NCBI GenBank assembly: GCA_012523095.1
Contig: JAAYJE010000038.1
Location: forward strand, 40,244-104,243
Length of the DNA stretch: 64,000 nt
Direction of reading: 5' to 3'
DNA from: Actinomycetota bacterium
GTDB taxonomy: Bacteria > Actinomycetota > Thermoleophilia > RBG-16-64-13
The notes beneath the pieces were generated by a model, which was not told the origin of the DNA, did not search any database, and was given only the letters and a program-made list of their open reading frames with translations. Both the position numbers and the translations under genes were made by a program. Below are positions 492-17,362 of this stretch, piece by piece (the first letter of the stretch is position 1; each line of letters starts with the position of its first letter).

Positions 492-574
492 ATGATCCGG
501 CCCTCCGTTCTTTCTGCTTTCGCGTGCCACTTCAGCGGCGCCGGCCTCCCGGCGTCATTTTTCCGTCCGGACCA

Positions 575-1516
575 TCAGACCGGCCCGAATGCTCCAATCT
601 CACTCAGATAGTCGAGCATCTTCAGGTACAGCTCATCGCGTTTCTTGAGGATCTCCACCTCGCTCCTGCCTTGATAATCGTAGATGCCACGCCCGCTCTT
701 GGCGCCGCAGTCCCCGCGTTCCACCCGCTCCTCCACGAACGAGTAGACCTTGCCCACGTTCTTCTGATAGGCCAGCAGCATGTCGAGGCCTTGGAAATCG
801 AAGGTCTGCATGACCCCGACGATCGGAAGCCGCACGCCCAGCGACGTCTTCACGGCCGTGTCGATCTCACCCGGCTCCACCAGACCTTCCTGGACCATGT
901 CCATGGCCGTCTCGCCAATGGCCCGCTGGATGCGGTTGACGATGAAGCCCGGGCCGAACTTCTTCATAGGCACCGGGCTCTTGCCGCAGACCTTCATGAG
1001 GGCCACGGTGAATTCCATGGTCTCGGGCGAGGTCCGCGGTCCCGGCACGACTTCGACCAGTGGGATGATGTGCGCCGGCGTGAAGAAGTGCGCGCACACG
1101 CCTCGAGGCTGCAATGCGTCCGGCAATAACTCGAAGATGTTGAGACTCGACGTGTTGCTGGCGATCACGGTCCGTTCAGGGCAGACGGCGGAGAGCTCAG
1201 CGTACAGTTCCCTCTTGGCGTCCTTGTTCTCGGCTATGGTCTCAAGGACGAAATCCGCATCCTTGGCGACATCCTTGACGTTCTGACTTGTCGTTATGCG
1301 GGCGATGGCCTCGTCTGCCACGGTTTGGGGGAGCGTGCCGTGTGCGACGAGAGTGGCGGAGTTGGCCCTCACCATCTTCATCGCCTTCTTCAACGTCTCC
1401 GCTTTGCGCGAGTACAGAGCCACCTCATACCCGGCGACGGCGAACATCTGAGCCACACCTGGGCCCATGGTGCCGGCGCCGAACACCGCTATCTTCTTGA
1501 CATCCTCGACTCTCAC
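575..1516 (-). CDS. 3-hydroxyacyl-CoA / 3-hydroxybutyryl-CoA dehydrogenase family protein (HBD-like), GTG start
   Basis: N-terminal Rossmann motif KKIAVFGAGTMGPGVAQ and C-terminal HCDH dimerisation region. AAAGGGG lies upstream of the GTG start. It is a paralog of 26931-27890. Confidence 0.8.
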   Translation of the reverse strand: MRVEDVKKIAVFGAGTMGPGVAQMFAVAGYEVALYSRKAETLKKAMKMVRANSATLVAHGTLPQTVADEAIARITTSQNVKDVAKDADFVLETIAENKDAKRELYAELSAVCPERTVIASNTSSLNIFELLPDALQPRGVCAHFFTPAHIIPLVEVVPGPRTSPETMEFTVALMKVCGKSPVPMKKFGPGFIVNRIQRAIGETAMDMVQEGLVEPGEIDTAVKTSLGVRLPIVGVMQTFDFQGLDMLLAYQKNVGKVYSFVEERVERGDCGAKSGRGIYDYQGRSEVEILKKRDELYLKMLDYLSEIGAFGPV

Positions 1517-1572
1517 CGACAGCCCCTTTCAGACCTCGCTTCTCCAGTCGCTCCCGTCCCGGGCAGCGGCGC

Positions 1573-2352
1573 CTAGGCCGTGCAGCTCCGGCCGCCGTCC
1601 ACATACACGACCTGCCCGGTCATGTAGTCAGAGGCCGCCGAGGCCAGGTAGATGCAGGTGCCCATGAGTTCCTCCGGCTCAGCGACCCGTCCGATGGGGT
1701 GCAGGGCGGTCGCCCCGGCCAGGACCTCGGGCGGCAGCGCGGCCTTCATGCCGGGGGTGAAGATCACCGACGGGCCGATGGCGTTGACGTTGACGCCGTG
1801 CTTGGCCCACTCGTACGCCAGCATGCGGGTGAGATTGCCGACGGCGGCTTTGCTGGCGCAGTAACCGACATTGCCCGCGAGCGGGACGCCGCGGTCGCCG
1901 GCCACCGAGCCGATGTTGATGATCTTGCCTTTCTTCTTCTCGAGCATGACCTTGCCGAATTCGCGACAGCAAAGCATGATGCTCTTCACATTGCTCTCGA
2001 AGAGCGTGTCCCAACTGCCTAAGGTCTGGTTCTCAAAGGGCTCTTTGATGTTCTGCCCCTGCGAGTTCACCAGGATGTCCACCGTGCCCATGGCCGCCAC
2101 GATCTCCCCGACCGCGTTCTTCACACCGGCCTCGTCGGTGGCGTCCATCCGGAAGGCCTTCACCTTCGTGGAGACTTCCGGATCGGCCGCAAGTTCACCG
2201 GCCACCACCTGCAGCTTCCCCAGATCGCGGCTGGCGAGAGCCACGTCCGCCCCTTGCCTGGCCAGCCCGAGCGCCAAGGCCTTTCCGATTCCTCCGCCTC
2301 CGCCGACGACCACTGCCACCTTGCCGTCGAGCCTGAAAAGGTCTCCCATCAT
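1573..2352 (-). CDS. SDR family oxidoreductase
   Basis: GKVAVVVGGGGGIGKA glycine-rich motif and YCASKAAV catalytic YxxxK. Start moved to the MMGDLFRL ATG at 2352; the track ORF extends to 2415 and would abut the upstream gene stop. Confidence 0.75.
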   Translation of the reverse strand: MMGDLFRLDGKVAVVVGGGGGIGKALALGLARQGADVALASRDLGKLQVVAGELAADPEVSTKVKAFRMDATDEAGVKNAVGEIVAAMGTVDILVNSQGQNIKEPFENQTLGSWDTLFESNVKSIMLCCREFGKVMLEKKKGKIINIGSVAGDRGVPLAGNVGYCASKAAVGNLTRMLAYEWAKHGVNVNAIGPSVIFTPGMKAALPPEVLAGATALHPIGRVAEPEELMGTCIYLASAASDYMTGQVVYVDGGRSCTA

Positions 2353-2416
2353 CGCCTCGTTTCGTCTTGCTCTGACATTCTCAGCTCCGTGCGCGGCTCG
2401 TTCCATCGTAGCCATC

Positions 2417-3661
2417 TCACCTGTAGGGCAACCAGCACTCCATCAACTCGTCGATGGGCCACAGGCTGAGCCGCTCGTAGCCGTCCTTGGTCACTAGGAT
2501 GTTCTCCTCCAGCCGCACACCGAACTTACCGCCCTTCTTGCCCGCGTAGGTCTCGACGGCCAGGCACATCCCTTCCCTGAAGGTCTGTTCGGGCACCCCG
2601 GCTACCTGGTTCATACGGTTGAAGAACGGCCGGTCGTGCAGAGTCAGACCCAGGCCGTGGCCGATGGCATAGGGGCCCACCTCAGCCCAGGTGTCGTGCC
2701 CCCAGTACTGGGGAGAGTCGGGCCACTTGTCGAGGAGCTGCCAGTCGGTCGAGCCGTCCTTGATGGTGCTCATGCCGTCATACAACATGGCCCGGCACTC
2801 CTCGTAGACGTCCTTCTGCTCTTGACTGGCCTTGCCCACGGAGAACGTACGGTAGACACACGACTTGTAGCCTTGGTAAGAGGCGCCGTCCACATCGATG
2901 TAGACCAAGTCGCCCACCTGCAGAGGCTTATCCGTGAACGACCACCCATAGGGGTTGGTATTGTGACCGGAACAGCAGACCAGGTCTTCGGTGTGGTCGT
3001 CCCCTTCCTCGTAGAGGGTCTTGATACCGATGGCGACCAGATCGCACTCCCGGATTCCCGGGCGGATGGCGTCCACGATCGCGGCAAAGGCCTTCTCGGA
3101 GTGTGCGCAGGTGATGCGCATCAATTCGATCTCATCCACCGTCTTGATCATGCGGGCAAGGTCCATGAAGGGTTTGGCGTGGACGACCTCCACGCCCCGC
3201 TTCTTGAAAGCCTCTGCGTAGATGTAGGAGAGCGTGGTGCCGTCGATGCCCAGCGGCTCCTTCTCCACGCCGTACTCCACCATGAAGCCGTAGATCTGGT
3301 CCACGACGTTCTGAACGACCTTGTCGTCGGGCGTGAAGGCCGCGATCTTCGCGATGCCGGCCGGAGCATGGATACGGCCCCCCATCCAGGGCATCCGCTG
3401 GATCAAGCCCTCTTGGTCGTTGCCTCCGATGATGTGCGGATCGCCGTTACGCGCACAGAAGCAGAACTGGGCCTCCAGAGGACGGTTGGGAGTGGTGATG
3501 TAGTAGCCCGTCATGTACCGGACATTGGCTTCGTCCCAGGTGACGATGGCTCCGAGCCCCGCCTTGTTGATCTCGGCCTTCGCACGCTGCAGGCGCTCCG
3601 CCCGTAGACGAGGATAGTTGACCCGTTCTTCGTAGTCGACCGCGTATTTTCCGAGTACCAT
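2417..3661 (-). CDS. M24 family metallohydrolase (creatinase/prolidase fold)
   Basis: Creatinase N-domain plus pita-bread catalytic domain with metal-ligand Asp/His/Glu pattern (..[18 protein letters not shown].., ..LHDRPFFNR..). ATG at 3661 follows GGAGGAG; the track start at 3664 is GTG. Confidence 0.75.
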
Positions 3662-3714
3662 CACTCCTCCTACCGTGTCGTCTATTCCGTCGTCTTAGGA
3701 CCCTGCGCGCGCTC

Positions 3715-4893
3715 CTACAGTCTTTCGAAGATCGCGGCGCACCCGATGCCGCCCGCCGCGCACATGCTGACCAATCCGTACCGGTTCTTGCGGCGTTTCA
3801 TCTCGTGCAACAGTGTCGCGGTGAGCTTGGCTCCGGTCGCACCCAGAGGATGGCCCAGAGCGATGGCTCCACCGTTCACGTTCAAGATCTCGCGGTCGAG
3901 GCCCAGTTCGCGCATGCAGTAGACAGACTGGCTGGCGAAGGCCTCGTTGAGCTCTATGAGCTCGATCTGGTCCATGGTGAGACCTGCGAGCTTCAGCACC
4001 TTCGGGATGGCGAACACCGGGCCGATGCCCATCACGGCCGGGTCGCAGCCGGCGGCGGCGAACGCTACGAAACGGGCCAGGGGCTCCAGCCCAAGCGACT
4101 CCGCCTTCTCCGCGCTCATCACGACCACGGCAGCGGCGCCGTCGCTGGTCTGCGACGAGTTGCCCGCCGTGACCGTGCCGTCCTTCTTGAAGACCGGCCT
4201 CAACTTGGAGAGGACTTCGACCGTGCTGCCCGGCCGCGGACCTTCGTCGGTGGTCGTTGTGGTGATCTTCTCGACCACCGTGCCGTCAGGGCCGGGGAGC
4301 CTGCGCTTGATCTCCACCGGCACGATCTCGTCGTCGAACGTGCCGTTCTCGATAGCCGCCAGAGCGCGGCGCTGGCTTTCGGCCGCGAACACATCCTGCT
4401 CTTCACGAGTGACGCTGAAGCGTTCGGCCACGTTCTCGGCCGTGATGCCCATACCGGCGTATACACCGGGGTTGACCTTCTGCATGTCCCAGCTGCTGAT
4501 CTGTTTGTTGCCGCCACCGGGCACCCGGGACATGCTCTCGATGCCCGCTGCAAGCACCACCTCGACCTGGCCCGACATGACGGCCTGGGCCGCATAAACG
4601 ACGGACTGCAGCCCGGAGGCGCAGAACCGAGTGAGGGTGACGCCCGGCACCGTGTCGGGGATGCCGGCGAGCAGGGCGTAGTTCCTCGCGCAGTTCAGCC
4701 CCTGTTCAGCCTCGGGGAAGGCGCAGCCCATGATGACGTCGTCTATCTCCGCCGGGTCGAGCCCGGGCGCGCGCTCCAGCGCCGCGCGGATGGACGTGAC
4801 CGAGAGGTGCTCCGGCTGGATGGTCCTGAACATCCCCCTCGGGGCTTTCCCGACCGGCGTACGTACCGCCGATACTACGACTGCTTCTATCAT
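3715..4893 (-). CDS. acetyl-CoA C-acetyltransferase (thiolase II)
   Basis: [13 protein letters not shown]-terminus, active-site Cys region [12 protein letters not shown] and C-terminal [21 protein letters not shown]. Confidence 0.85.
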
Positions 4894-4918
4894 GAAGGGT
4901 CTCCTTCGCTCCTCGCGC

Positions 4919-7297
4919 CTAGTTCCGGAGGGGCTTCCCGGTCCTCAGCATGTGTTGCATCCGCTCGATGCTCTTGGCCGTGCGGCACACCTCTAGGAAG
5001 GCCTTGCGCTCGAGGTCGAGGAGATACTGCTCGTCGACCTCTGCGTTGATCTCCACCTCGCCGCCCGACAGGACCCGGCCCACCATCATCGACAGATAGT
5101 GGTCGTGGTCGGAGATAAAGTCGCCGCTGCGGGCGTTATCGAGGATCCAACGGAAGTTCCCCATGCCGTCCACACCCATCACCTGCACCGTCACCGGCGC
5201 CGGCGTCTGCCAGCCCGACTCGAGCATCCCTAGGGCCACCTGCTTCGCCGCATGGATGAGGCCGTCGCGGTTCATAGTCACGCCGTCCCCGGGGCGAAGG
5301 TAACCGAGGTCGAACGCCTCCCAGGCCGAGGAGCTGACCTTAGCCATAGTGATGGCCTGGAATGAGCGCTGCATGATGAACCAGGCCCAGTTGACACCCT
5401 GAGCGGGGGCCGTGGTGCGGAACACCGCCTCCTTCATCCCTCCGGCCGCCGGCACAAGCCCTACGCCGGTCTCCACCAGCCCCATGTTGACGTCGGCGTG
5501 GGCCTGCACACGATGGCAATGCAGGCAGACCTCAAGGCCGCCGCCCAGTACCCTGCCGAACGGCGCCGCCACTATGGGGATAGGCGCGTACTTCATGGCC
5601 ATGCTCGTGCGTTGGGCCGTGCGGACCAGGTGCTCGATGCCGTCCCAGTCCTCAGCGGCGATCTTGTCGAGCATCAGCCTTATGTCTGCTCCGCCCGAGA
5701 AGTGTGCGCCTTGGTTACCGATGACCAGAGCGTCATAGGCGTCTCCGGCGTTCTCGATGGCCTTCAGAATGAAGAGCTGCACCCCTTCTCCCACGGTGTT
5801 GGCCTTGGTGTGGAACTCGATGCAGGCCACCCGGTCGCCCAGATCGACGAGACCGGCATGCTCGTTCTCCTCGAGCGTCCTGCCGTTCGCCTTGAGATCG
5901 GCGAGGTTGATCACACGCTTCCGCGCTGCAAGCGGCTTGTGTCCCTCCTGACCCGGTCCCCACACTTCGAGAGCGCCCGCCTCCTTCTTGTAGAACGAGG
6001 GAGCCTCGGTGGCCGCCAGCTGTAGCACCCATTCGGGAACGGCCCGGCCCTCCGCCTTCATCCGCTCGACGGTCTCCTTGACTCCGAGGGCGTCCCACAG
6101 CTCGAAGGGGCCCAGGTCCCAGGCATAGCCCCAACGCATGGACCGGTCGATCTGAGCGATGTCGGAGCAGATCTCGGGGATACGGTTGGCAGCGTAAACG
6201 AAGGTGGCGGCTAGAAGGTCCCACCCAAAACGAGCGGCCGCGTCGTCGAACGAGATGAACTTCCGCACGCGCGCTACCGGGTCGGAGATCTTGTTCGCCT
6301 CCGTGAGGCTCTCGTACTGCGGGTCCTGCCAGGGTCGGTATTCCAGCGTATTGGGATCGATGCACAGAGTGCGCTTCTCTCTGAAGAAGCTCCCGCCGGT
6401 CTTCTCGCCCAGATAGCCGCGGTCGACCATGTCCAGGATCCACTGAGGAAGCTTCCACTGCTCGCGCATCTCGTCGCCCACGGCGGTCTCGTAGTGGCTC
6501 TCGACCGCGTAGGCCAGCACATCGGTGCCGGCCAGGTTAGACGTGCCATAGGTGGCGGTCACCGAGCGGGCCAGGGCCCGGCCGCTGGCCGCGTCGACGT
6601 CCTCGATGGTGAGGCCGTACTTCTCCTGTTGATTGATCGCGTAAACGGTCGAGAAGATGCCGATGCGGTTGGCGACGAAGTTCGGGGTGTCCTCGCTCAG
6701 CACCACTCCCTTTCCCAGTCGAAGCTCGGCAAACTCCTGCAGACCTTTCACAACGGCCTTATCGGTATGACGGCCCGGGATCACTTCCAGGAGGTACATG
6801 AAGCGGGGCGGGAAGAAGAAGTGACTGCCCAGAAAACGCCTCTTCACGTCGTCGGGGAGGACCGATGCCATCGCGTTGACCGAAAGTCCTGAAGAGTTCG
6901 TCGACACGATAGTCTTAGGGCCGATGTACCCGGCCACCCGGCTCAGAAGGCTCTGTTTCACGTCGAGCCTCTCCACCACAGCTTCCACTACCCAATCCAC
7001 ATCCGCAAGCTTCGCCAGGTCGTCATCGAGGTTCCCCGGAGTGAGCAGATGGGCGCGGCTTGGGTGTGCGAAGGCGGCGGGGCGCCCCTTGAGAGCTGTG
7101 GAGATCGCAGCCTTGGCCAGACGGTTCCGCACGCCCGGGTCATCCAACCCCAGACCGAGCTTCTTCTCGTCGTCGTTCAGCTCCGTCGGAGCCAGATCGA
7201 GGAGCAGTGTGGGTATGCCGGCGTTCGCCAGATGGGCCGCAACCGCGGTACCCATGCGGCCCGCTCCGAGAACAGCCGCCCTTCGGATCACTAACAT
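4919..7297 (-). CDS. FadN-type bifunctional 3-hydroxyacyl-CoA dehydrogenase (N-terminal) / enoyl-CoA hydratase (C-terminal)
   Basis: N-terminal NAD-binding AVLGAGRMGTAVAAHLA followed by HCDH C-domains. C-terminal crotonase fold (..GGGLEVCLHCHRVQAHADVNMGLVETGVGLVPAAGG..). 792 aa with the same domain order as Bacillus FadN. GGAGG RBS overlaps the TetR stop. Confidence 0.85.
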   Translation of the reverse strand: MLVIRRAAVLGAGRMGTAVAAHLANAGIPTLLLDLAPTELNDDEKKLGLGLDDPGVRNRLAKAAISTALKGRPAAFAHPSRAHLLTPGNLDDDLAKLADVDWVVEAVVERLDVKQSLLSRVAGYIGPKTIVSTNSSGLSVNAMASVLPDDVKRRFLGSHFFFPPRFMYLLEVIPGRHTDKAVVKGLQEFAELRLGKGVVLSEDTPNFVANRIGIFSTVYAINQQEKYGLTIEDVDAASGRALARSVTATYGTSNLAGTDVLAYAVESHYETAVGDEMREQWKLPQWILDMVDRGYLGEKTGGSFFREKRTLCIDPNTLEYRPWQDPQYESLTEANKISDPVARVRKFISFDDAAARFGWDLLAATFVYAANRIPEICSDIAQIDRSMRWGYAWDLGPFELWDALGVKETVERMKAEGRAVPEWVLQLAATEAPSFYKKEAGALEVWGPGQEGHKPLAARKRVINLADLKANGRTLEENEHAGLVDLGDRVACIEFHTKANTVGEGVQLFILKAIENAGDAYDALVIGNQGAHFSGGADIRLMLDKIAAEDWDGIEHLVRTAQRTSMAMKYAPIPIVAAPFGRVLGGGLEVCLHCHRVQAHADVNMGLVETGVGLVPAAGGMKEAVFRTTAPAQGVNWAWFIMQRSFQAITMAKVSSSAWEAFDLGYLRPGDGVTMNRDGLIHAAKQVALGMLESGWQTPAPVTVQVMGVDGMGNFRWILDNARSGDFISDHDHYLSMMVGRVLSGGEVEINAEVDEQYLLDLERKAFLEVCRTAKSIERMQHMLRTGKPLRN

Positions 7298-7300
7298 ACT

Positions 7301-7992
7301 CTAGTCCTCCCCAGAATTATCTCCGCGATCCAGACCAAGACCCCGGAAGATGAAACCGATTAGAAACTCAACCGTCGACTCGACATCTTCGGGGCCGGAC
7401 AGCTTAAGGTTCCAGCCCCTAAGAACAAGGAATAGACACACGTACGAGACCAGATTCGCAGCCAACTCAGATTCCCGCCCCCGCAGCTGGTGTCCGGGGA
7501 TCAGCGAAAGAAGGTGCCGATAGAAGCCCACGACGTTCCGGTCGTCCAACTCGAGCACCTTTCGGAGGTGCTCCTTGTCGAGGTACTTGCTCTCGGTGAA
7601 TATGAACTGGTAGAGCTGCCGATTCGCGGAAAGATGCTTCATGGTGATCCGCAGCCCATGCTCCAACTTGGCCACAGGGTCGGTGATCTCCTCGATACCG
7701 GCGTCGACCAAACTCTGATTCCACAACTCCTGACTGTGACGGTGCATGAGGTACAGGATGTCGTCTTTTGAGGAGATGTAGTGGTACAGCTGACCCATGG
7801 ACATCCCGCACGCGGAGGCGATATCGCGGATGGAGGTCTTGCCGAAGCCCTTCTCGAAGAGCACGCTGCTCGCTCCTTCCACGATGATGCGCTGCTTCAT
7901 CTCGGTCAACTCGCGGTCGGTCGAGGCCGCCTGCAGAGATCCCTCCGCAACCCTCTGCAGCATCTCATCAAGCTGGTGTTTGGTGCTCGTCA
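7301..7992 (-). CDS. TetR/AcrR family transcriptional regulator
   Basis: HTH at ..KTSIRDIASACGMSMGQLYHYISSKDDIL.. The track ORF extends to 8287 but would overlap the SnoaL-like gene. The ATG at 7992 (MTSTKHQ...) gives a typical ~230 aa TetR. Confidence 0.75.
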
Positions 7993-8093
7993 TGAAGGTC
8001 GCGCACTCCTTGCGTCCGATATAGTGTTGTCCGCGGCCGGCCTCTCCCGGCCTGATGAACCGATCTGCCGGAAGAGCGGATGACCGCCTTCGA

Positions 8094-8142
8094 TAGAGCG
8101 CTCGCTCTAACCATTCTGGCAGGTATTCCGGCCCGGTGTCAA
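8094..8142 (-). promoter_or_regulatory. Predicted sigma70-type promoter (TTGACA-N17-CAGAAT on minus strand) with a 16-bp palindromic operator TAGAGCG-N2-CGCTCTA just downstream; copy 1
   Basis: Plus-strand tgtcaa 8137-8142 (-35), attctg 8113-8118 (-10), palindrome tagagcgctcgctcta 8094-8109. Near-identical architecture to copy 2 at 10740-10786. Confidence 0.45.
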
Positions 8143-8180
8143 GAGACATGCCGAGACGGACAGGCAACGCGTACCAATCC

Positions 8181-8687
8181 TCACCAGAGACCGCTTGGCG
8201 GGCCGCCACCCGGCAGTCCATGGATTTCGCTCCAACGCATGCAGGCGATCTTCCATCTGCCGTTCTCGCGTACAAAATCGTTGTCATAGCGGCCCTGGAC
8301 CCAGAACATCGACTGGCCGGTCCTCTTGTAGAAGTACATCATGAAGAGCATGAAGTCGCCCTTGGCGTTGTCTCCCTCAACGGTGATGATGGGATTCACG
8401 CAGACGTCGCCTTCATTGCCCGCGTGCGTCTGAGACAGCTCTTCTTTCAGCCATCGCCGGATATTCTCTTTGCCTCTCACAGGCTCATGCAGGTACACGT
8501 CCACCTGGGCGTCTTCGGCGAAGCACTCGGCGCACTCGTCCCACTCCATGAGCATGAGCGCATTGAGGTACCGGTACTGTACTTCCTGGATCTCCCTGAC
8601 ATCTGCGGTCTCGCGGGCAAGCGCCGACAGCCTGCCGACCCTCTCTTCGAGTTCGGCGATCCGCGCTTCCAATCCCGGCTTGTCCAT
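8181..8687 (-). CDS. SnoaL-like / NTF2-fold (ketosteroid-isomerase-like) protein
   Basis: 168 aa. ATG with AAGGAG RBS. NTF2-like pattern (..EDAQVDVYLHEPVRGKENIRRWL.. ..ITVEGDNAKGDFM..). Confidence 0.55.
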   Translation of the reverse strand: MDKPGLEARIAELEERVGRLSALARETADVREIQEVQYRYLNALMLMEWDECAECFAEDAQVDVYLHEPVRGKENIRRWLKEELSQTHAGNEGDVCVNPIITVEGDNAKGDFMLFMMYFYKRTGQSMFWVQGRYDNDFVRENGRWKIACMRWSEIHGLPGGGPPSGLW

Positions 8688-8857
8688 ACCCTGCTCCTTT
8701 TTCTCTCGGCATCACTTCTCGTACACGATCTCAGACCGGGGGCGCCTATATCGCAGAGCCGATCTTCCCCGGCTCCAACAGCTTCTCGTACTTGGCGCTC
8801 ATGCTCGACTGCGCTCCTCCGGGTCGCGCCTCGCTGCCGAGGCTCTGTACCGAGGTT

Positions 8858-9913
8858 CTACGTCGTCAGCAGTATTTTGACGGCCCCCTCGAGACGCTTG
8901 TCAAAGATCTCGTACGCCCGGATAACGTCGTCTAAGCTCATCCGATGGGTCACTACTGGGGAAACGTCGAGCTCTCCATCTTCGATCACCTTCACGAGCT
9001 TAGGCATGGCACCGAGATCACCCATGCCCATGGCCACCGTCACGTTCCTGGCCTGCATGCGGGGCGCGTTGATCTTGATAGGCGCTTGGAAGGCACCGAC
9101 CACAGCGACGACCCCACCTGGAGCAGCGACCCGGATGGCGTTCTCCAGGCTCTCCTCTTTGCCTACCGCTTCGACGATGTAGTCCGCGCCCCAGCCGTCC
9201 GTGTGTTGCCGCACCGCTTTGCGGACGTCTTCGGTTCCGGCGGCATCGATGGTCACGTCCGCGCCCAGCCTCTCGGCGAGGGCCAACCGCTCGGCGCGAT
9301 TGCCCACCGCGATGATTTTGGCGGGGCGGAACAGCTTGGCGGAGGCCACGGAGCAGAGACCCACCGGACCGAGGCCGAACACCACGACATGGTCCCCCTC
9401 ACGCACGCCGCGCCCGCCCGGAGAAAGCCCGGCAACCGCCGAATACCCGGTCGGGAGGATGTCTCCCGCGAAGATGATGCGATCGTCCGGTGCAGTGACA
9501 TGCTGCAGCGTGTTGTCGGCGAAGGGCACCCGCACGTAGTCGGCCTGCGCCCCAGGCAGATCGCCCAGTAGGGGCCCGTGGCCGAAGGTCGCTCCGCGCT
9601 CGCACGCGCTATAGAGGCCCCGCCTGCAGGCCCGACACCGGCCACACCAGACGGCCGCGGCACCCACCACCCGATCCCCCGGTTTGAACCTACCGACCGC
9701 CCCGCCCACCTCGTGCACCACACCACAGAACTCATGCCCGATGATCCGCCCGGGTTCCATCTTGGGAAGAAGGCCGTGCACGATATGGGTGTCGCTGCCG
9801 CAGATACTGGCCGTCGTGACCCGGACGACGGCGTCTTCGGGATCCTGGACGACCGGCTCCGGCACGTCCTCCAGCCGGATATCATTCGGGCCTTCGTATA
9901 CGACGGCTCTCAT
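8858..9913 (-). CDS. zinc-dependent alcohol dehydrogenase (MDR family)
   Basis: MRAVVYEGPNDIRL, CGSDTHIV, GHEFCGVVHEVG zinc motifs, and a Rossmann VVVFGLGPVGL segment. The ATG at 9913 overlaps the upstream SDR stop (ATGA). Confidence 0.8.
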   Translation of the reverse strand: MRAVVYEGPNDIRLEDVPEPVVQDPEDAVVRVTTASICGSDTHIVHGLLPKMEPGRIIGHEFCGVVHEVGGAVGRFKPGDRVVGAAAVWCGRCRACRRGLYSACERGATFGHGPLLGDLPGAQADYVRVPFADNTLQHVTAPDDRIIFAGDILPTGYSAVAGLSPGGRGVREGDHVVVFGLGPVGLCSVASAKLFRPAKIIAVGNRAERLALAERLGADVTIDAAGTEDVRKAVRQHTDGWGADYIVEAVGKEESLENAIRVAAPGGVVAVVGAFQAPIKINAPRMQARNVTVAMGMGDLGAMPKLVKVIEDGELDVSPVVTHRMSLDDVIRAYEIFDKRLEGAVKILLTT

Positions 9914-10683
9914 CCCTCTTCGACCTCGAGACCGTGCCAGCAAACGAGCTCGTCGTCAAAGGCCACGCAACCCGTGACCCCATTCGCATCCTGCTTGGCG
10001 AGGAACATGACGCATGTCACCATAGATGCCGGGGACTTCCAGCCGATCTGGTCCTCGGGCTTAGCCCACATCCGCATCCCCTCGGTGCTCACCACACCCC
10101 ACGGTTTGACGGCGTTGACTGCGATGTTGTTCTTGCCTTCTTCAGCCGCGAGCGCCCAGGTGAACCGGTCAAGACCCGCCTTTGAGACGGCATAGACGGC
10201 GCTGTAGCCCACGGTGCCGCTACCGCGTTCGGCGCCCGCGTTGGAGGCGATGTTGACGATGCTCCCGCCACCCTGCCCGCGCATGCTTGGTATGACCGCT
10301 TTGGAGCACAGGAAGGGTCCCGTCGTGTTGACTTTGAGCACGACCTCCCAACGTTTCAAGGGCATCTCAACGCACGGGAACGGGAAGTCGATGGCCGCGT
10401 TGTTCACCAGGATGTCGATGCGTCCCCACTTGGCCAGAGTCGCCTCGACCATGGCGTTGACACTCTCCTCGCTGGTCACGTCACAACGCACGGCGATGGC
10501 CTCGCCGCCCAGCTTCTCGATGTCGGCCACCGTCTCGCCGATGGTGCCCGGCAGCTTCTCGTGCGGCTGGACCTCGCTGCGGGCCGCCACGACCACCTTT
10601 ACACCCTCTCTCGCGAACCTCAGGGCAACAGCTTTTCCGATACCCCGGCTGGCTCCGGTGACGATAGCTACCTTGCCACGCAT
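9910..10683 (-). CDS. SDR family oxidoreductase
   Basis: MRGKVAIVTGASRGIGKA start, NNAA, and YAVSKAG catalytic motif. GGAGG RBS. Confidence 0.8.
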   Translation of the reverse strand: MRGKVAIVTGASRGIGKAVALRFAREGVKVVVAARSEVQPHEKLPGTIGETVADIEKLGGEAIAVRCDVTSEESVNAMVEATLAKWGRIDILVNNAAIDFPFPCVEMPLKRWEVVLKVNTTGPFLCSKAVIPSMRGQGGGSIVNIASNAGAERGSGTVGYSAVYAVSKAGLDRFTWALAAEEGKNNIAVNAVKPWGVVSTEGMRMWAKPEDQIGWKSPASMVTCVMFLAKQDANGVTGCVAFDDELVCWHGLEVEEG

Positions 10684-10739
10684 TCCTGCCTCCTCTTACT
10701 TGGAACCGGCATCACGCACCCGAAGCAGCAGACTTGGAT

Positions 10740-10786
10740 AGAGCGCTCGCTCTATCATTCTGGCAGAAGTCCGCTGCTTGTGTCAA
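10740..10786 (-). promoter_or_regulatory. Predicted promoter plus palindromic operator, copy 2 (same architecture as 8094-8142)
   Basis: Plus-strand tgtcaa 10781-10786, attctg 10758-10763, palindrome tagagcgctcgctcta 10740-10755. It sits 57-103 nt upstream of the SDR start at 10683. Confidence 0.45.
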
Positions 10787-10897
10787 GGACTGAAGAGCCG
10801 TAGTCTCAACCATGATGGACGCGCCGGACGCCGCGATGAGCATCGCTTTTCGGGTAGAATCCAGGCCACCGGCACTTCGACCACAGGTGAACACTCG

Positions 10898-11621
10898 CAT
10901 GAAGTACTACAACTACAGCATATCCCCAGGGATCTTCGCACGCTTCCCCGGTTACGTCCGCGGCGTGGTGATAGCCCACGAGGTCAAGAACGGCCCGTCC
11001 CCGGCCGAACTGGTGGAGATGATGCGCGAAGCGGAAGAGTCGGTGCGGGCGAGGGTCGATCCGGAACAGATCGCCGAGGAACCACGGATCAAGTCCTGGC
11101 GCGAGGCGTACCGAGCCTTCGGCGCCAAACCCTCAGAATTCCGCTCCTCAGTGGAGGCCATGGCAAGGCGGGCTCTGCGGGGCGACCGGCTTCCCAGCAT
11201 CAGTGCGCTGGTCGACCTCGGTAACGTCATGTCGCTGCGGCACCTGATACCGGCCGGGGCCCATGCCATCGACCTCTTGCAGGGAGACATAGAGCTCCGT
11301 TTTGCCAACGGCGATGAAGACTTCGTGGCCTTCGGCTCCGAGAAGTTGGAACACCCTCTACCGGGTGAGGTGGTCTTCGTCGAGGGCGGCACCAACACGG
11401 TGTTGACCAGACGCTGGACCTGGCGCCAGGGCAACCACACCCTGACCCTCCCCGACACAACCGCCATCGAGTTCAATGTCGACGGGTTACCGCCTGTCAC
11501 GCGCGAGGAGATCGAGGCCGCCTGCGCCGAAGTGGCGGAGTTGATCCGGCGGTTCTGCGGAGGTAGCAGCCGCATCGACTACCTGACGGCGGAGACCCCA
11601 CGCATCTCCCTGGCACCCTGA
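10898..11621 (+). CDS. B3/B4 tRNA-binding-domain protein (COG3382-like stand-alone PheT B3/4 domain)
   Basis: ATG at 10898 with AGGTGA RBS. Motifs MKYYNY...GVVIAHEVKN...KSWREAYRAFGAKPSEFRSSVEAMARR...LVDLGNV resemble stand-alone B3/4 proteins. Confidence 0.5.
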
Positions 11622-11662
11622 GCCGGCGGAGCCACTCGTTCCTACCGAACACCCGCCCGACG

Positions 11663-12859
11663 CTAAACCGCCTCCACCACCGTGGCGATGCCCTGGCCGC
11701 CGGCGATGCACAGCGTTGCCAGCCCGTAGCGCGTGCCCCGCTTCTGCATCTCATGGAGCAAGGTCGTGAACACCCTCGCCCCGGAGCAGCCTATAGGATG
11801 GCCGAGCGCGATGGCTCCTCCGTTGACGTTGAGGACGTCCATGCGGTCTCCGATGCCTAGCTCTTTGATGACCGCCAACGACTGCGCCGCGAACGCTTCG
11901 TTCAGTTCAATCAGACCCATATCGTCAAAGGTGAGGCCCGCGCGTTTCAGCGCCAAGCGCGAGGACGGCGCCGGCCCGAGACCCATGATCTCTGGAGGCA
12001 CGCCCGCGACGCCCATGCCTCGTATCGCCACCATGGGTTCGATACCGCGACGACCCGCCTCCTTGGCCGACATGACCACAGTGCAGCCGGCCCCGTCGTT
12101 GCGGCCCGAAGAATTGCCCGCGGTCACCTGCCCGTCCTTCTTGAAGACGGCCGGCAGTGCCGCCAGCCCCTCCAGAGTGCTCCTACGTGGATGCTCGTCG
12201 GTATCAAAGACGAGAGGATCCTTCTTCCGCTGCGGAACGTGTACCGCTACGATCTCGCCCTTGAAGCGACCTGACTCGATAGCGGCGAACGCCCGCTCCT
12301 GGCTCTGCAATGCGAAGGCATCCGATTCTTCGCGGGTGATGCCGTACTTCTCCCCCAGGTTCTCGGCCGTCAGCCCCATGGTCAGGTCGCCGTACACCTC
12401 GTAAGGTTGAGAGCGGGGCTGGCTTTCGGTGTTCGAGTCGAGCAGCACCGCGTTGCCGGCCCGGTACCCGTAGCGCGCGTCCCTGAGGTAGTAAGGAGCC
12501 CTGCTCATGCTCTCTACGCCACCCGCGACCACGATGTCGGCCTCGCCGATCATGATACTGGCCGCCGCGTTGTGGACAGATTGAAGACCCGAGCCACACT
12601 GCCGCATGACCGTGTAGGCGGGCACCTCCACAGGCAGCCCGGCCTTGAGCGCCGCCACACGCGCCAGATTGGCGGCGTCCGCACTCTGCTTGGCCTGGCC
12701 CATGATGACTTCGTCCACTTCGCCAGGTTCTACCTCGGCCCGTGCCAAGGCTTCCTGTATGACCAGCTTGGCGAGATCCTCGGGCTCCATGTCCTTGAGC
12801 CCTCCACCCAACCTGCCTACCGCCGTTCTCACGGCACTGACGATGACCACTTCGTCCAT
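11663..12859 (-). CDS. acetyl-CoA C-acyltransferase (thiolase)
   Basis: MDEVVIVSAVRTAVGR start, Cys region TVMRQCGSGLQS, and C-terminal GGQGIATVVE. ATG at 12859 with GGGAAGG RBS; the track start at 12895 is GTG. Confidence 0.85.
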   Translation of the reverse strand: MDEVVIVSAVRTAVGRLGGGLKDMEPEDLAKLVIQEALARAEVEPGEVDEVIMGQAKQSADAANLARVAALKAGLPVEVPAYTVMRQCGSGLQSVHNAAASIMIGEADIVVAGGVESMSRAPYYLRDARYGYRAGNAVLLDSNTESQPRSQPYEVYGDLTMGLTAENLGEKYGITREESDAFALQSQERAFAAIESGRFKGEIVAVHVPQRKKDPLVFDTDEHPRRSTLEGLAALPAVFKKDGQVTAGNSSGRNDGAGCTVVMSAKEAGRRGIEPMVAIRGMGVAGVPPEIMGLGPAPSSRLALKRAGLTFDDMGLIELNEAFAAQSLAVIKELGIGDRMDVLNVNGGAIALGHPIGCSGARVFTTLLHEMQKRGTRYGLATLCIAGGQGIATVVEAV

Positions 12860-13009: not shown

Positions 13010-13849
13010 TCAGTCGAACGGCTCCAGCACGATGCCGCCTAGATCGACGTCGGTATGCGTGAACACCTCGATGATCATCGACGCGTATCCGTCGCACTCG
13101 ATGTTCACACGGTAGTCCTTGTTCTTCTCCAAGCCGTCGAACTCGAAGTCCCCATAGTTGTCTGTGTGGGTCTCGAGCCTGATCCCCTCTCCCTCGAGAG
13201 TGACCCACACTCCTTCGGCGCACTCGTCAGGGACGTCACGCCGGATGACCTCACCGACCACGAAGCGTTTGGGGATGCCGACGTACTTGACCAGCGGAGA
13301 GGTATTGTACTCGGGATGAAGCGCCTCCGTATCGAGGGTCGCAACCAGCTTCGATATCTCGCTGTTCGGGTCGTCCAGGTCGCCGAAAACGAGAGCGCCG
13401 GTCGGACAGGCTTCTACGCACCGGGGTTGCTTCTCCCCCGCATCCAGCATGTGCGCACACAGGGTACATTTCTGGGGGATATCCAGTTCGGCGTTCCAGA
13501 AGACCACCCGGTAGGGACAAGCGTTCACTACCGCCTTCTGCCCCTTGGCCCTCACCGGGTCGATCATGACGACGCCGTCGTCGCGCCGGTATACGGCGTC
13601 GTCCAGGGCCACGGCGATACAAGGCGCCTCTTCGCAATGTAGGCACGGAATCGGCAGGTAGTCCACTTTAGGTTTGGGATAACTCCCGCGCTCGATCTCC
13701 TTGACCTGCATCCAGAACTGCCCCTCGAGAGGTTGGGGAGCCGAATAAGAGCCGTAGTCGTTGCCATAGTACTCGTCGCGGCACGCCAAGAAGCAGTTGT
13801 GGCAGCCACTGCACTTGGTCACGTCTATAAGCAAGCTAAGCCGCGCCAT
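13010..13849 (-). CDS. Molybdoenzyme small (beta) subunit of the pyrogallol-phloroglucinol transhydroxylase family, copy 1: three [4Fe-4S] motifs plus C-terminal beta-sandwich domain
   Basis: CSGCHNCFLAC, PCLHCEEAPC, CPYRVV and CTLCAH...CVEACPTGA Cys clusters. C-terminal ..NYGDFEFDGLEKNKDYRVNIECDGY...VDLGGIVL resembles the Pelobacter BthL C-domain. GGAGGG RBS inside the alpha gene end, 3-nt gap. Confidence 0.8.
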   Translation of the reverse strand: MARLSLLIDVTKCSGCHNCFLACRDEYYGNDYGSYSAPQPLEGQFWMQVKEIERGSYPKPKVDYLPIPCLHCEEAPCIAVALDDAVYRRDDGVVMIDPVRAKGQKAVVNACPYRVVFWNAELDIPQKCTLCAHMLDAGEKQPRCVEACPTGALVFGDLDDPNSEISKLVATLDTEALHPEYNTSPLVKYVGIPKRFVVGEVIRRDVPDECAEGVWVTLEGEGIRLETHTDNYGDFEFDGLEKNKDYRVNIECDGYASMIIEVFTHTDVDLGGIVLEPFD

Positions 13850-13852
13850 CTC

Positions 13853-16402
13853 TCAGCCCTCCCATTTCCCTATCTCGATGAGGCACGAGTTGGGCGTCAT
13901 CCCCGGCGCATTCTTGGACAGCATCCGAGACGGGGTCAGCATGCTGACACACCCGCCCCTGTCCGGGGAGTCAGGGTCGCCCGGCATCAACGGGTCGTAC
14001 AGGGCCGAAGAAGCGTAGCTGTGCACCGTCCCAGGACGGACCCGACCTGTGACGACGGCGATGCAGAGCACCGACGCTCTGTCGTTGTAGAGGCGGACGA
14101 TATCGCCACTGTTGATGCCCCTCTCAGCCGCGTCCTCCGGATTCAGCCGCGCCGGCCACCAAGGATAGCCGTCCTTCTTGATGCGATGCACCGGGATGTC
14201 GTTAAGCCAGTCGGTGTGCTTGTCGTAGTGGCAGTGGAACGAGAAACGTGGATGCGGAGACAAGAGCTGCAACGGGTATTTGTCATACAGTCCGGGCGTG
14301 CGATACCCCTCCCAGCTACGGAGATATCGGGGCACTACCGGCCGTTCCTCGTCATCGGGGAAGTACTGCTTCAGACTCTCCGAGGCGAACTCGATCTTGC
14401 CGCTGAAGGTTCCCAGCTCGTGGTTCGCCGCGGTCAGCCGCTTGGGATTGCCGACGTCGGGCGTATCGCAGGCCCGGCCCTCGTAGAACCAACGCAGCCC
14501 AGGCGTGGGTTCGTAGTCGTCCTTGATGTTGATGATGTGATAACCCTTACGGTTGAACTCTTCCCAGCTCACCTCTTTGGGCAGGTCGCAGGCGTCGAAG
14601 AAACCTTTGACCCAATCGACCTCGGTCTTGCCGCCATCGGTGTACTCATCGCGGAGACCCATCTTCTCGAAGATGAGAGCGAAGATCTCATAATCCGATT
14701 TGGAATCCCAAAGTGGTTCGATGCACTTCTGCTCACGGACCACCACCCGGTAGTTGCAACCGCTGCTGGCGTGCCAGGTGTAGCCGTTAACGGCGGCCCA
14801 CTCCCCGATGTCGTCACGTTCGAAGTTGGTGCAGGCGGGCAGGATGACGTCGGCCATGCGGGTCTCGCTGTTCCACCAGATGTCTTGGTTCACCACGAAC
14901 TCCAGCTTGGGGCTCTGATACATACGCGCCCACTTCGTGGTGTCGCTCATGGTGCCCATGAAGGAGCCGCCGTATCGGTACCACAGCTTGACCTCAGAGC
15001 ACCCCTCCGCCGGGTACTTGAAATGCATGAATTGCTGCTCGAGGCTCCTGCCGCAGAAGCCCTCGCCGTACCACTCCACCGGAGGGTCGAGGATAGCGTC
15101 GGGCACCGTCAAGCGCCAAAGCCGCTGGGGGTTCGAATTGACCGGGATGTAGTCCGCGACCTTGGGAGACATCGATATGCGACCGTTAGGCTCACCATAG
15201 GCGGGCACCCAGACCGTGGTGTCGTTCGGAGCCCCCATCGTCGTACCCCAGATGCTGCGGCCCGGTGCGCCCAACCCCTGCATCGCCTGCAGCAACACCA
15301 TCATGCGGGCCCACTCAGTGCCGTATGCCTCCCGGCAGGCGCCGCCCTCGCCGCCGCGAGACCCCCCGGAAAGGATGGTGCGCTTGGCCGCCCACTCTCG
15401 GGCCAGGGCGCGGATCACTCGAGCCTCCACGTCGCACTCTTCGGCGGCCCACTCGGGGGTTTTGGGCACTCCGTCGATATCCCCCAGTATGTACTCCTTG
15501 AACTCTTCGAAACCGATGGTACGGTCGGCGACATACTCTTTGTTGTAGGTGTCCTCGGTGATCCACACGAAGGCTATGGCCATAGCCATGGCTGCGTCGG
15601 TGCCCATGCGCGGAGTGATCCACTTGCCGCCCATAACAGCGTTCGTGTAGTTATAGAAGGGGTCGATGAAGACCATCTTGACACCCTTCTCCTTGAGCCA
15701 CTGGCGCCAGAGCGCAGAGTCTTGGCCCGAGTATGTTCCCCGGGTGCTGTCCGGATCGTTGGACCAGTAGACGATCATCTCGGCATTCTGTAACGCATCG
15801 CCCAACATGTCGTACGGTTCGGGCATCCCGAGACGCCAGTAGAACCCGTAGCTGTGCGTGGCTCCCCAGTGCCAGCCCTCCCAGCTGTCGGGGTTGTCGA
15901 GCACCGGGGTGCCTTCCATCATGTTGAGGAACCGCGCGAAGGGCCCCATCTTATAACCCACGATGCCCCAGTTGTGGTGCGACGAGGTCATGCCGCTGAT
16001 GGCTGAGCCGCCGTAAGCATCCTTCACTCTCGTCAGCTCGGAGCTCACCAGAGTAGCAGCCTCATCCCAAGAGATGTGCTCGTAGGGAGACCTGCCACGG
16101 TTCTGCGGATTTCGGCCCCCGGGCCCGGTGGAGCCTGGAGCACCATTCGCGTCGAAATCGACCCGCTTCATCGGGTACTTGATGCGCTCGTCGGAGTAGA
16201 TGCGGCGGCGTTCTGCGTGGGTATAAGGCGACAGCGTCACCTTCTTAGGGGGAGAGTACTCTTTGCCGCCGGCTTCGATGGTCCAAGGCTTGAAGTCCTT
16301 CTCATCGACCACCAGTGGACGAACCCGAACGATCTTCCCGTCTTTGACATAGACAGACACGGGCCCGCTGTTGGTACAGTTGGCGAACACCCTTTCGGCC
16401 AT
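13853..16402 (-). CDS. Molybdopterin-dependent large (alpha) subunit of the pyrogallol hydroxytransferase (transhydroxylase) family, copy 1
   Basis: 849 aa MopB-type protein without an N-terminal CxxCxxxC FeS motif and without a Tat signal. Blocks PDSWEGWHWG, MIVYWSNDP, GVPKTPEWAAEE, ILPACTNFERDDIGEW and SDYEIF are as in the Pelobacter acidigallici large subunit. Confidence 0.8.
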   Translation of the reverse strand: MAERVFANCTNSGPVSVYVKDGKIVRVRPLVVDEKDFKPWTIEAGGKEYSPPKKVTLSPYTHAERRRIYSDERIKYPMKRVDFDANGAPGSTGPGGRNPQNRGRSPYEHISWDEAATLVSSELTRVKDAYGGSAISGMTSSHHNWGIVGYKMGPFARFLNMMEGTPVLDNPDSWEGWHWGATHSYGFYWRLGMPEPYDMLGDALQNAEMIVYWSNDPDSTRGTYSGQDSALWRQWLKEKGVKMVFIDPFYNYTNAVMGGKWITPRMGTDAAMAMAIAFVWITEDTYNKEYVADRTIGFEEFKEYILGDIDGVPKTPEWAAEECDVEARVIRALAREWAAKRTILSGGSRGGEGGACREAYGTEWARMMVLLQAMQGLGAPGRSIWGTTMGAPNDTTVWVPAYGEPNGRISMSPKVADYIPVNSNPQRLWRLTVPDAILDPPVEWYGEGFCGRSLEQQFMHFKYPAEGCSEVKLWYRYGGSFMGTMSDTTKWARMYQSPKLEFVVNQDIWWNSETRMADVILPACTNFERDDIGEWAAVNGYTWHASSGCNYRVVVREQKCIEPLWDSKSDYEIFALIFEKMGLRDEYTDGGKTEVDWVKGFFDACDLPKEVSWEEFNRKGYHIINIKDDYEPTPGLRWFYEGRACDTPDVGNPKRLTAANHELGTFSGKIEFASESLKQYFPDDEERPVVPRYLRSWEGYRTPGLYDKYPLQLLSPHPRFSFHCHYDKHTDWLNDIPVHRIKKDGYPWWPARLNPEDAAERGINSGDIVRLYNDRASVLCIAVVTGRVRPGTVHSYASSALYDPLMPGDPDSPDRGGCVSMLTPSRMLSKNAPGMTPNSCLIEIGKWEG

Positions 16403-16501: not shown

Positions 16502-17362
16502 ATGGTCCATTTGCAAGGCATGCGCTCGCCTGGAAGAGCGGCCCCGATCGACGGGAGAGATATGGCCGCGACGACAGCATCGCGAGATACCGATCCTTTC
16601 TCGGTCAGAGCGCTGGCCCGAGGCCTCTCCATTCTATGCCTTTTTGACGTGGACCACAGAGAGTGGACCATCGACGAGATGGTGGAGCGGACCGGGCTGG
16701 TTCGCATGACGGCCTACCGGATGGTGCGGACTCTGGAGTCCATGGCCTTCCTGGTGCGGGATTCCGCGACCAATCGCTACCGGCTCGGGCCGGCCATGTT
16801 GGCGCTCTGCTACGTCGCCGCCGATCAGTCGGAGTTCATCGCGGCGGCCCGACCTTTTCTCGAATCCCTCGTGGAGCAGACGGGAGAATCGGTCACTCTG
16901 GCCGTGGAGGTCGACGGGTTCCCCGTGTGTGTGGACATCATCAACACCACCCGTCCCTTCAAGCGCCAAACGGCCCCCGGCCGCATCCTCGGTGACATCG
17001 CGACGGTCCACGGAAAGATCTTCACCGCCTTCAAGTCGCCGGAGGAAAGAGAAGCGCTTCTCGCTCGGCCCCGCGCCAGGCGGACACCTCAGACCGTGAC
17101 CGACCGGGAGGTCATCCTGGCGGAGCTCGACCGGGTAGTCAAGGACGGCGTAGCCTACGATCTCGAAGGGTACTACCAGGGTCTGTGCGCGGTGGGCGCT
17201 CCGGTACGCGACCAGTTCGGAGCGGTCACGGCCTCAATCTCCGTGGTGGCTCCTGCGGGCCGCTTCGGTCCCGCCGAGAGCGCCGCTTTCGCGGAGGCCG
17301 TCACGGAGGCGGCCGGCGCCTTCTCCGCCTATCTGGGGTGGACCCCCCGAGCATCTACTTAG
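16502..17362 (+). CDS. IclR family transcriptional regulator
   Basis: N-terminal wHTH (..SVRALARGLSILCLFD...WTIDEMVERTGLVRMTAYRMVRTLESMAFL..) and C-terminal IclR effector domain. The start codon is uncertain; later Met at 16520 or 16562 are possible. Confidence 0.75.
   Translation: MVHLQGMRSPGRAAPIDGRDMAATTASRDTDPFSVRALARGLSILCLFDVDHREWTIDEMVERTGLVRMTAYRMVRTLESMAFLVRDSATNRYRLGPAMLALCYVAADQSEFIAAARPFLESLVEQTGESVTLAVEVDGFPVCVDIINTTRPFKRQTAPGRILGDIATVHGKIFTAFKSPEEREALLARPRARRTPQTVTDREVILAELDRVVKDGVAYDLEGYYQGLCAVGAPVRDQFGAVTASISVVAPAGRFGPAESAAFAEAVTEAAGAFSAYLGWTPRAST

Follow-up and report, generated by a model that had tools for sequence, protein, structure and literature searches.

The 64,000-nucleotide stretch of DNA analyzed here, which we refer to as the window, comes from an Actinomycetota bacterium of the class Thermoleophilia (assembly GCA_012523095.1, contig JAAYJE010000038.1, positions 40,244 to 104,243). 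On its minus strand it contains two regulatory cassettes, each consisting of a sigma-70-like promoter followed by the same 16-bp palindrome and located ahead of an operon of catabolic genes. Judging from the sequence architecture and its conservation, the inverted repeat TAGAGCG-AG-CGCTCTA(TC) is very likely the operator of the TetR-family regulator encoded at 7301-7993, acting at sigma-70/sigma-A promoters of the extended -10 type. In the proposed mechanism, the operator lies 2-3 nt past the extended -10 promoter TTGACA-N18-TGcCAGAAT, and binding of a TetR dimer would prevent RNA polymerase from forming the open complex or from leaving the promoter. The two cassettes of the window would drive the SDR2-ADH-SnoaL and the tetR-FadN-thiolase-M24-SDR-HBD-OYE-SnoaL operons, respectively, and a third cassette, beyond the window, would drive genes for an HpaB-like enzyme, an ADP-forming acyl-CoA synthetase and an ABC transporter. 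Derepression would occur when a pathway metabolite, at best guess a CoA thioester, binds the C-terminal domain of TetR. The architecture of these elements, their conservation and their co-occurrence with the regulator gene are direct observations; from them, we infer that TetR binds and represses, where transcription starts and what the ligand may be.

The exact 16-mer TAGAGCGCTCGCTCTA is found at 8094-8109 and 10739-10754. The operator of the first cassette, O(tetR), matches the 18-mer TAGAGCGAGCGCTCTATC exactly (8092-8109, minus strand) and comprises a 7-N2-7 inverted repeat at 8094-8109 followed by a conserved TC; P(tetR) consists of the extended -10 element TGc-CAGAAT at 8113-8121 (hexamer 8118-8113) and the -35 element TTGACA at 8137-8142. 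The second operator, O(SDR2), is likewise an exact match to the 18-mer (10737-10754, minus strand), with the -10 element TGc-CAGAAT of P(SDR2) at 10757-10765 (hexamer 10762-10757) and the -35 element TTGACA at 10781-10786; at this site, the arms of the inverted repeat reach 9 bp (10737-10756), giving GATAGAGCG-CT-CGCTCTATC. Consensus matching across positions 7000-12000 detected exactly two sigma-70-like promoters, namely these two, both on the minus strand, each scoring 10/12 and with TG before the -10. The palindrome is separated from the -10 by 3 nt at the first site and by 2 nt at the second, a 1-nt indel. The original prediction, made from the sequence of the window, had recognized the two cassettes with shared -35, -10 and palindrome, and the exact matches and the promoter scan agree with it, including the common orientation, except that the spacer between the -35 and the -10 is 18 nt in both copies instead of the 17 nt given there. 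With the usual 7-nt distance, transcription is predicted to start near 8106 and near 10750, inside the operators; counted from these predicted starts, each operator covers approximately -3 to +13.

The likeness of the two cassettes could, in principle, stem from a REP- or MITE-like dispersed repeat, from recent local duplication or from chance. By our own estimate, ~0.5 pairs of repeated 16-mers are expected by chance in 64 kb, so that such a repeat is not rare in itself, and the case therefore leans on the joint architecture and the comparative data. For this particular 16-mer, dinucleotide shuffles gave 0.44 expected matches against 4 observed strand-matches, and none of 100 shuffles attained 4. 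A search of the window for the 16-mer with up to three mismatches returned only the two known sites, and a scan with the 18-mer allowing up to five mismatches found nothing above chance there. Pairwise alignment of the cassettes shows identity in the blocks CTTGACAC, CTGCCAGAATG and TAGAGCGAGCGCTCTATC.AAG, the remainder being near random, and this blockwise identity excludes a recent duplication. Two independent Logan assemblies of this locus (SRR8925751 and SRR3166066; L002 and L003 in our locus numbering) break off within the P(tetR) spacer at one and the same base, around 8130, a position at which the JGI and ENA assemblies are unbroken; these breaks may reflect strain heterogeneity upstream of tetR.

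Starting from the regulator, we collected 748 TetR homologues at E <= 1e-10 and built a profile from 25 of them, which yielded 71 loci from contigs, one genome per species; these were scanned for the palindrome and searched by tblastn with the cluster proteins. The Actinomycetota set comprises 20 full-length loci from Thermoleophilia, Gaiellales and other “Actinomycetes” metagenome-assembled genomes (MAGs), with TetR proteins at 59-76% identity, and 30 aligned sites, the source contig included. In all 20 loci, the cassette stands ahead of tetR or of the first gene of the tetR-containing operon. The operator matches at 16/16 positions in 28 of the 30 sites, and all 30 carry the central AG on the coding strand, the orientation of the 3' TC being kept as well. 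Also universal among the 30 sites are a -35 of the form TTGAC[A/T/G] with a 17-18-nt spacer and a -10 of the type (c/g)A(g/c)AAT after cTGc, followed after 2-6 nt (mostly 3) by the operator. The per-column information amounts to ~2 bits in the operator, is high in the -35 and -10, and drops to about zero in the spacer and flanks. Together with the blockwise identity, this footprinting supports the original view of the cassettes as products of selection and not of recent duplication. Given the shared orientation of AG and TC relative to the promoter in 30 of 30 sites, the cassettes appear to be paralogous and in all likelihood go back to a single ancestral promoter-operator unit, of which the functional blocks alone were retained.

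The placement of the cassettes in these loci follows a few patterns. A site precedes the SDR2-led operon in 13 of the 20 loci (in L016, the SDR is merely 37% identical), and seven of these 13 (L005, L006, L008, L011, L012, L016 and L023) have a second site directly before tetR. The other six (L007, L009, L010, L013, L015 and L018) have no tetR-proximal site, and the gap between the SnoaL gene and tetR is ~50-165 nt, which makes tetR the apparent distal gene of a single operon in these loci; TetR lacks a promoter of its own in about a third of the relatives. The tetR-proximal site occurs alone in four loci (L004, L017, L019 and L021), and in L014, L020 and L022, it is a crotonase-like or HpaB-like gene, followed by tetR, that lies behind the cassette.

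The position of the operator after the -10 is conserved across three phyla. In Desulfobacterota, where the TetR proteins are 43-58% identical, the element reads TAGAGC[G/A]AGCGCTCGA, is inverted relative to tetR, and is located 26-28 nt (in some cases, 35-37 nt) past TTGACA. With an N17 spacer, a distance of 26-28 nt places the operator right after the -10, and the operator-over-promoter geometry is also found at most Desulfobacterota sites. Among Bacillota, Desulfitobacterium and Sporomusa (TetR ~40% identical) carry TAGAGCGAGCGTTCNA, and more operator variants surface when the search for the core is relaxed. The recognition helix MSMGQLYHYISSKDD is invariant in the motif-bearing groups; TetR proteins at 26-27% identity with another recognition helix (INLSQLYNY...) are without such a motif. 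The operator variants of a Desulfobacterota MAG (L024) and of Desulfitobacterium sp. Sab5 and Sporomusa spp. (L063, L065 and L066) are located before genes for SDR2, HpaB-like enzymes and AMP-forming CoA ligases, and in Desulfitobacterium also before ETF genes, behind which comes a gene for a CCG Fe-S oxidoreductase; the same clusters also contain a TRAP transporter (L024) and an OYE-like gene (L063). This gene content suggests a conserved core regulon across phyla.

The same divergence bears on whether the palindrome is constrained chiefly in the transcript, where a stem-loop at the 5' end might influence stability or translation, be it an operator or not. The leader RNA can indeed form a 6-8-bp stem with a GAGC loop, and a second constraint of this kind could account for the unusually complete invariance of the sequence. 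The differences between phyla are, however, non-compensatory, with one TCGAGC half and one TAGAGC half in Desulfobacterota; sequence and not pairing is what is conserved, and the Desulfobacterota element is inverted relative to transcription. Moreover, the predicted +1 falls inside the 5' arm, which implies that the full hairpin would not be transcribed; leader folding energies are no better than those of shuffled sequences (z from -0.55 to +0.07), and the Rfam covariance models gave no match at E <= 1. Hence we give an RNA-level role very little credence.

In the opposite direction, metagenome contigs were searched for exact matches to the motif TAGAGCGAGCGCTCTATC, which occurred in 92 stretches; from these, we examined 80 loci with a total of 84 sites, oriented on the motif. 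Sites related to this 18-mer come from many other environmental metagenomes. The first downstream gene belongs to the gene types of the cluster at 61 of the 84 sites, or 61 of the 77 that could be evaluated, the other seven lying at a contig end. It is most frequently the TetR orthologue (24 sites), followed by SDR2 (21 sites and one weak match), an HpaB-like gene (8 sites) and a gene for a crotonase-like ECH_1 protein of 329 amino acids (8 sites); 15 sites precede an unrelated gene. At 62 of the 84 sites, TTGAC is present upstream, at a distance of 25-30 nt, and it is missing at most of the 15 unrelated ones; in a collection of this size, we roughly estimate that ~15 matches to the 18-mer are expected by chance. 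Taken together, the downstream genes and the TTGAC pattern indicate that the element is not a generic repeat and does not match by chance. The gene for this conserved ECH_1 protein (L014:6953-7942; also in L087, L104, L111, L122 and L133) is absent from the window; in eight metagenome loci it stands first behind the operator, often divergent from two SDR genes.

These comparative data refute an origin of the cassettes by dispersed repetition, duplication or chance, to which we assign a negligible probability. It is not improbable for 64 kb to contain one repeated 16-mer, and the two cassettes probably do share an ancestor, but there are just two copies in the 64 kb of the window and three in the 142-kb contig region, and across ~100 independent loci the copies are always intergenic, in a promoter context and before the same few gene families.

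A further question is whether the promoter assignment or the mode of action is correct: the hexamers might not be functional, transcription might start elsewhere, or TetR might act as an activator or a roadblock. The -10 is imperfect (CAGAAT), the promoter scan consists of consensus matching only, and those Desulfobacterota operators that lie 35-37 nt from the -35 are clearly downstream of +1. Nevertheless, every one of the Actinomycetota sites has kept TTGAC[A/T/G], the 17-18-nt spacer and, with TGn, an ANNAT -10, while the sequence between them varies freely, TTGAC recurs at the same distance in the majority of the metagenome sites noted above, and a location straight after the -10 is the typical repressive position for operators of TetR-family regulators. 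We therefore consider an error of this type unlikely.

It is also conceivable that the operator is real but is bound by another regulator, either the IclR-type protein encoded around 16562-17362 or an unlinked factor, with TetR acting elsewhere. The IclR gene is ~6 kb away in the same contig, and binding by TetR itself is a prediction. Against this, TetR is the only regulator that accompanies the motif in Actinomycetota, Desulfobacterota and Bacillota, whereas the IclR and B3_4 neighbors are not kept in the related loci; the motif variants follow the divergence of TetR; and TetR is the most frequent gene directly downstream of the motif in the motif-first scan. Control by a different protein thus appears very unlikely, and the footprinting together with the TetR-first and motif-first comparisons supports the original assignment of the palindrome as a TetR operator over the +1 region, duplicated before the TetR and SDR/ADH operons.

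The regulator itself has the domain and fold of the family. The protein of 230 amino acids contains a TetR_N helix-turn-helix domain at residues 37-80 (PF00440, 42.6 bits; cut-off 24), and its AlphaFold2 model (pLDDT 85.2, pTM 0.80) is all-helical, with 11 helices, and agrees with the two-domain TetR fold, in which the C-terminal domain serves ligand binding and dimerization. The search for solved structures with this all-alpha fold gave 309 PDB matches at E <= 0.001, and all of the best 50 are TetR-family proteins. The best solved relatives by sequence are PfmR (3vpr, E 5.9e-11, residues 32-219) and AibR (5k7f, 2.7e-10), and the closest folds among the matches listed are those of PfmR, AibR, FasR and FadRs, with TM scores of 0.55-0.65 at 18-28% identity. 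None of the NCBIfam equivalog models is reached by this protein, the FadR model scoring 30.3 bits against a cut-off of 200, and there is no close solved relative, only the distant acyl-CoA-sensor kin. The reading frame of tetR is open for 294 nt 5' of the real ATG at 7993 (7994-8287, minus strand), and as a result, some gene callers produce a protein of 306 amino acids (P0001; L077:1416-2336) that engulfs P(tetR) and the operator; the TetR orthologues align from residue 1 of the 230-residue form. Annotation of such loci thus calls for caution because gene callers may over-extend the TetR open reading frame across its own promoter and operator.

Several observations weigh against the identification of the palindrome as the operator of this TetR, or against parts of the scheme built on it. 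In one Actinomycetota locus (L069), whose TetR is truncated at the end of the contig, the 8 kb upstream contain no site, and no motif could be recognized in roughly one in three loci of Desulfobacterota and Bacillota. The invariance of the helix MSMGQLYHYISSKDD is partly an effect of ascertainment because those peptides served as search patterns. The -10 hexamer starts with C or G, not with T. The near-total invariance of all 16 operator bases exceeds that of most TetR operators and may reflect a constraint beyond binding by one dimer. Finally, the fold likeness to acyl-CoA sensors is modest, near the level of any two TetR-family proteins.

The set of genes under this control extends past the edge of the window. 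In the source contig, a third cassette, TTGACA-N17-AAGAAT-aca-TGGAGCGAGCGCTCTA, with a 15/16 match to the operator, is located ~2.4 kb before window position 1 (L001:20384-20399; L075:10520-10535), in the interval that separates the second SnoaL gene from the operon after it. Behind it lie genes for an HpaB-like protein (496 amino acids), an ADP-forming acyl-CoA synthetase (723 amino acids) and a Liv-type ABC transporter, and the same position is occupied by a cassette in eight metagenome loci. The original prediction of a small regulon covered the two operons of the window, to which at least this third cassette has to be added. With the three cassettes pointing the same way, the cluster of ~20 genes would form a single autoregulated regulon.

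Gene calls were based on Pfam and on the gene table of the source contig (JGI 3300038805 Ga0239563_000076, 142 kb), which comes from an anaerobic digester; identical sequence is present in anaerobic-digester assemblies. All genes of the two operons are on the minus strand. The upstream operon (8181-10683), under P(SDR2), starts with SDR2 (9910-10683), followed by the Zn-ADH gene (8858-9913) and, between the latter and P(tetR), by a SnoaL_4 (NTF2-like) gene at 8181-8687. The downstream operon is headed by the gene of the proposed repressor and continues with those for a FadN-like 3HCDH+ECH protein (4919-7297), a thiolase (3715-4893), an M24/creatinase-like hydrolase (2417-3664), an SDR (1573-2415), a 3-hydroxyacyl-CoA dehydrogenase-like protein (3HCDH, HBD; 575-1516) and an OYE/FAD oxidoreductase cut by the window start (1-491); a second SnoaL_4 gene, just outside the window, closes it. 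The genes 3' of tetR (1-7297) lie on the same strand, tightly packed, and their order is kept in relatives, as is the order SDR2-ADH-SnoaL, often with TetR next and without a second promoter. Pfam confirms the original calls for TetR, FadN-like, thiolase, M24, SDR, HBD, OYE, SDR2 and Zn-ADH; the tetR span given as 7301-7992 had to be corrected by one base, and the SDR2/ADH operon had included both of these genes while leaving out the SnoaL_4 gene. No terminator-like site was detected in 8000-11000, the region with both cassettes, and hence none between the SnoaL gene and P(tetR), so that transcription from P(SDR2) probably reads through into tetR.

The M24/creatinase-like protein is by far the best-conserved protein of the cluster, with mostly 83-95% identity across Actinomycetota species and two outliers at 69% and 74%; its cluster neighbors show 60-85% identity. 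The nearest named models, DddP, prolidases and ectoine hydrolase, are all far under the cut-off, and a search of solved structures with the M24 protein and the SDR yielded only generic prolidases and gluconate 5-dehydrogenase, with no clue to the substrate. This protein may be a ring-opening hydrolase. The regulon is flanked by genes for pyrogallol-transhydroxylase-like molybdopterin oxidoreductases, with an AhtL-like first domain (13853-16402, minus strand; 17489-20140, plus strand), an Fe-S subunit (13010-13849, minus strand) and the IclR regulator (~16562-17362, plus strand). No operator was found ahead of the flanking molybdopterin oxidoreductase, Fe-S subunit or IclR genes. A short conserved block, repeat family D1, occurs at 11748, 17882, 30273 and 42440.

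By itself, the switch is an ordinary, textbook TetR arrangement of a well-known kind and of modest interest. Its value lies in the precision of the cis-element across phyla: the 18-mer TAGAGCGAGCGCTCTATC and a defined repressor delimit a regulon of ~20 genes for an anaerobic degradation route, and the element can serve to list the pathway genes in metagenomes and help to find the inducing metabolite and, through it, the substrate. We propose, tentatively and with less than even confidence, that this TetR and its near-invariant operator mark a widespread, uncharacterized anaerobic catabolic regulon common to Thermoleophilia-like Actinomycetota, Desulfobacterota and Bacillota. If so, its core would consist of an SDR, an HpaB/4-hydroxybutyryl-CoA-dehydratase-like enzyme, a CoA ligase and an OYE-type reductase, to which Actinomycetota would add the highly conserved M24 “pita-bread” hydrolase, which might open a cyclic dione or a polyphenol-derived ring, and the operator would be a ready probe for all pathway genes and for the inducing metabolite. 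Cultured carriers are available in Sporomusa acidovorans, S. silvacetica and Desulfitobacterium sp. Sab5.

As to the pathway, the original prediction had considered phloroglucinol intermediates as ligands, an idea that found no support. The characterized dihydrophloroglucinol cyclohydrolase (DPGC) belongs to the “cyclase” family and not to M24 (PMC10470551), and our literature searches linked neither a TetR regulator nor an M24 hydrolase to the degradation of phloroglucinol; for these reasons, the phloroglucinol label was dropped. The cluster does share with the phloroglucinol cluster of Clostridium scatologenes (PGR, DPGC, TfD and TAL; PMC10470551) an SDR, a 3-hydroxyacyl-CoA-dehydrogenase-like gene and a linked regulator, and the pyrogallol-transhydroxylase-like molybdoenzyme genes lie nearby on the same contig, which makes a link to polyphenols possible. 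The clostridial PGR-DPGC-TfD-TAL cluster was rejected as a model given that the annotated cluster genes are of other types (M24, thiolases, FadN-like, OYE, SnoaL and HpaB-like). No description of a cluster like the one in the window, or of its regulator, was found in the literature, and the operator sequence turned up in none of the searchable papers, with strings matched anywhere in the text.

Some of the TetR homologues are labelled “cholesterol catabolism regulator” (KstR/KstR2) by JGI. Like KstR and KstR2, the regulator described here belongs to the TetR family, has a short palindrome with TAGA...TCTA-like outer bases (the KstR motif being TnnAACnnGTTnnA), and would serve a multi-operon catabolic regulon in Actinomycetota. 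Unlike in the KstR motif, however, the operator core is GCG-AG-CGC and not AAC-nn-GTT, and the gene content is not steroid-specific. We rejected a KstR-type regulator on account of the operator core GCGAGCGC and of the similarity to KstR2, which is limited to the helix-turn-helix (E ~6e-5, residues 36-85).

The acyl-CoA-responsive TetRs, namely, PfmR of Thermus thermophilus (3vpr), AibR (5k7f/5k7h/5k7z), the FadRs of Bacillus and S. acidocaldarius, and FasR (6o6n), are closer, being the best sequence and fold matches of the present TetR, yet at just 18-28% identity. They control genes of the beta-oxidation type (thiolases, 3-hydroxyacyl-CoA dehydrogenases and crotonases), as in this cluster, which differs from fatty-acid regulons in its M24 hydrolase, OYE, SnoaL and HpaB/AbfD-like genes. 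Characterized members of this group are acyl-CoA sensors, and the regulon is rich in CoA chemistry, with CoA synthetases/ligases, thiolases, crotonases and HpaB/AbfD-like enzymes, joined by TRAP transporters and ETF in other phyla. These two features make a CoA thioester our best guess for the effector, which we advance with low confidence.

With respect to its design, the system resembles autoregulated TetR systems such as TetR-tetO and QacR: the regulator combines a TetR_N helix-turn-helix with an all-helical ligand domain, the palindromic operator of ~16-18 bp lies over the core promoter, and the regulator gene is located within the regulated cluster, behind its own operator. It differs from these systems in that the regulator gene is co-directional with its targets, as the first gene of a long catabolic operon, instead of being divergent from a single target. 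Furthermore, the operator is unusually invariant, being exact in 28 of 30 sites across species, and up to three tandem cassettes on one strand together serve ~20 genes.

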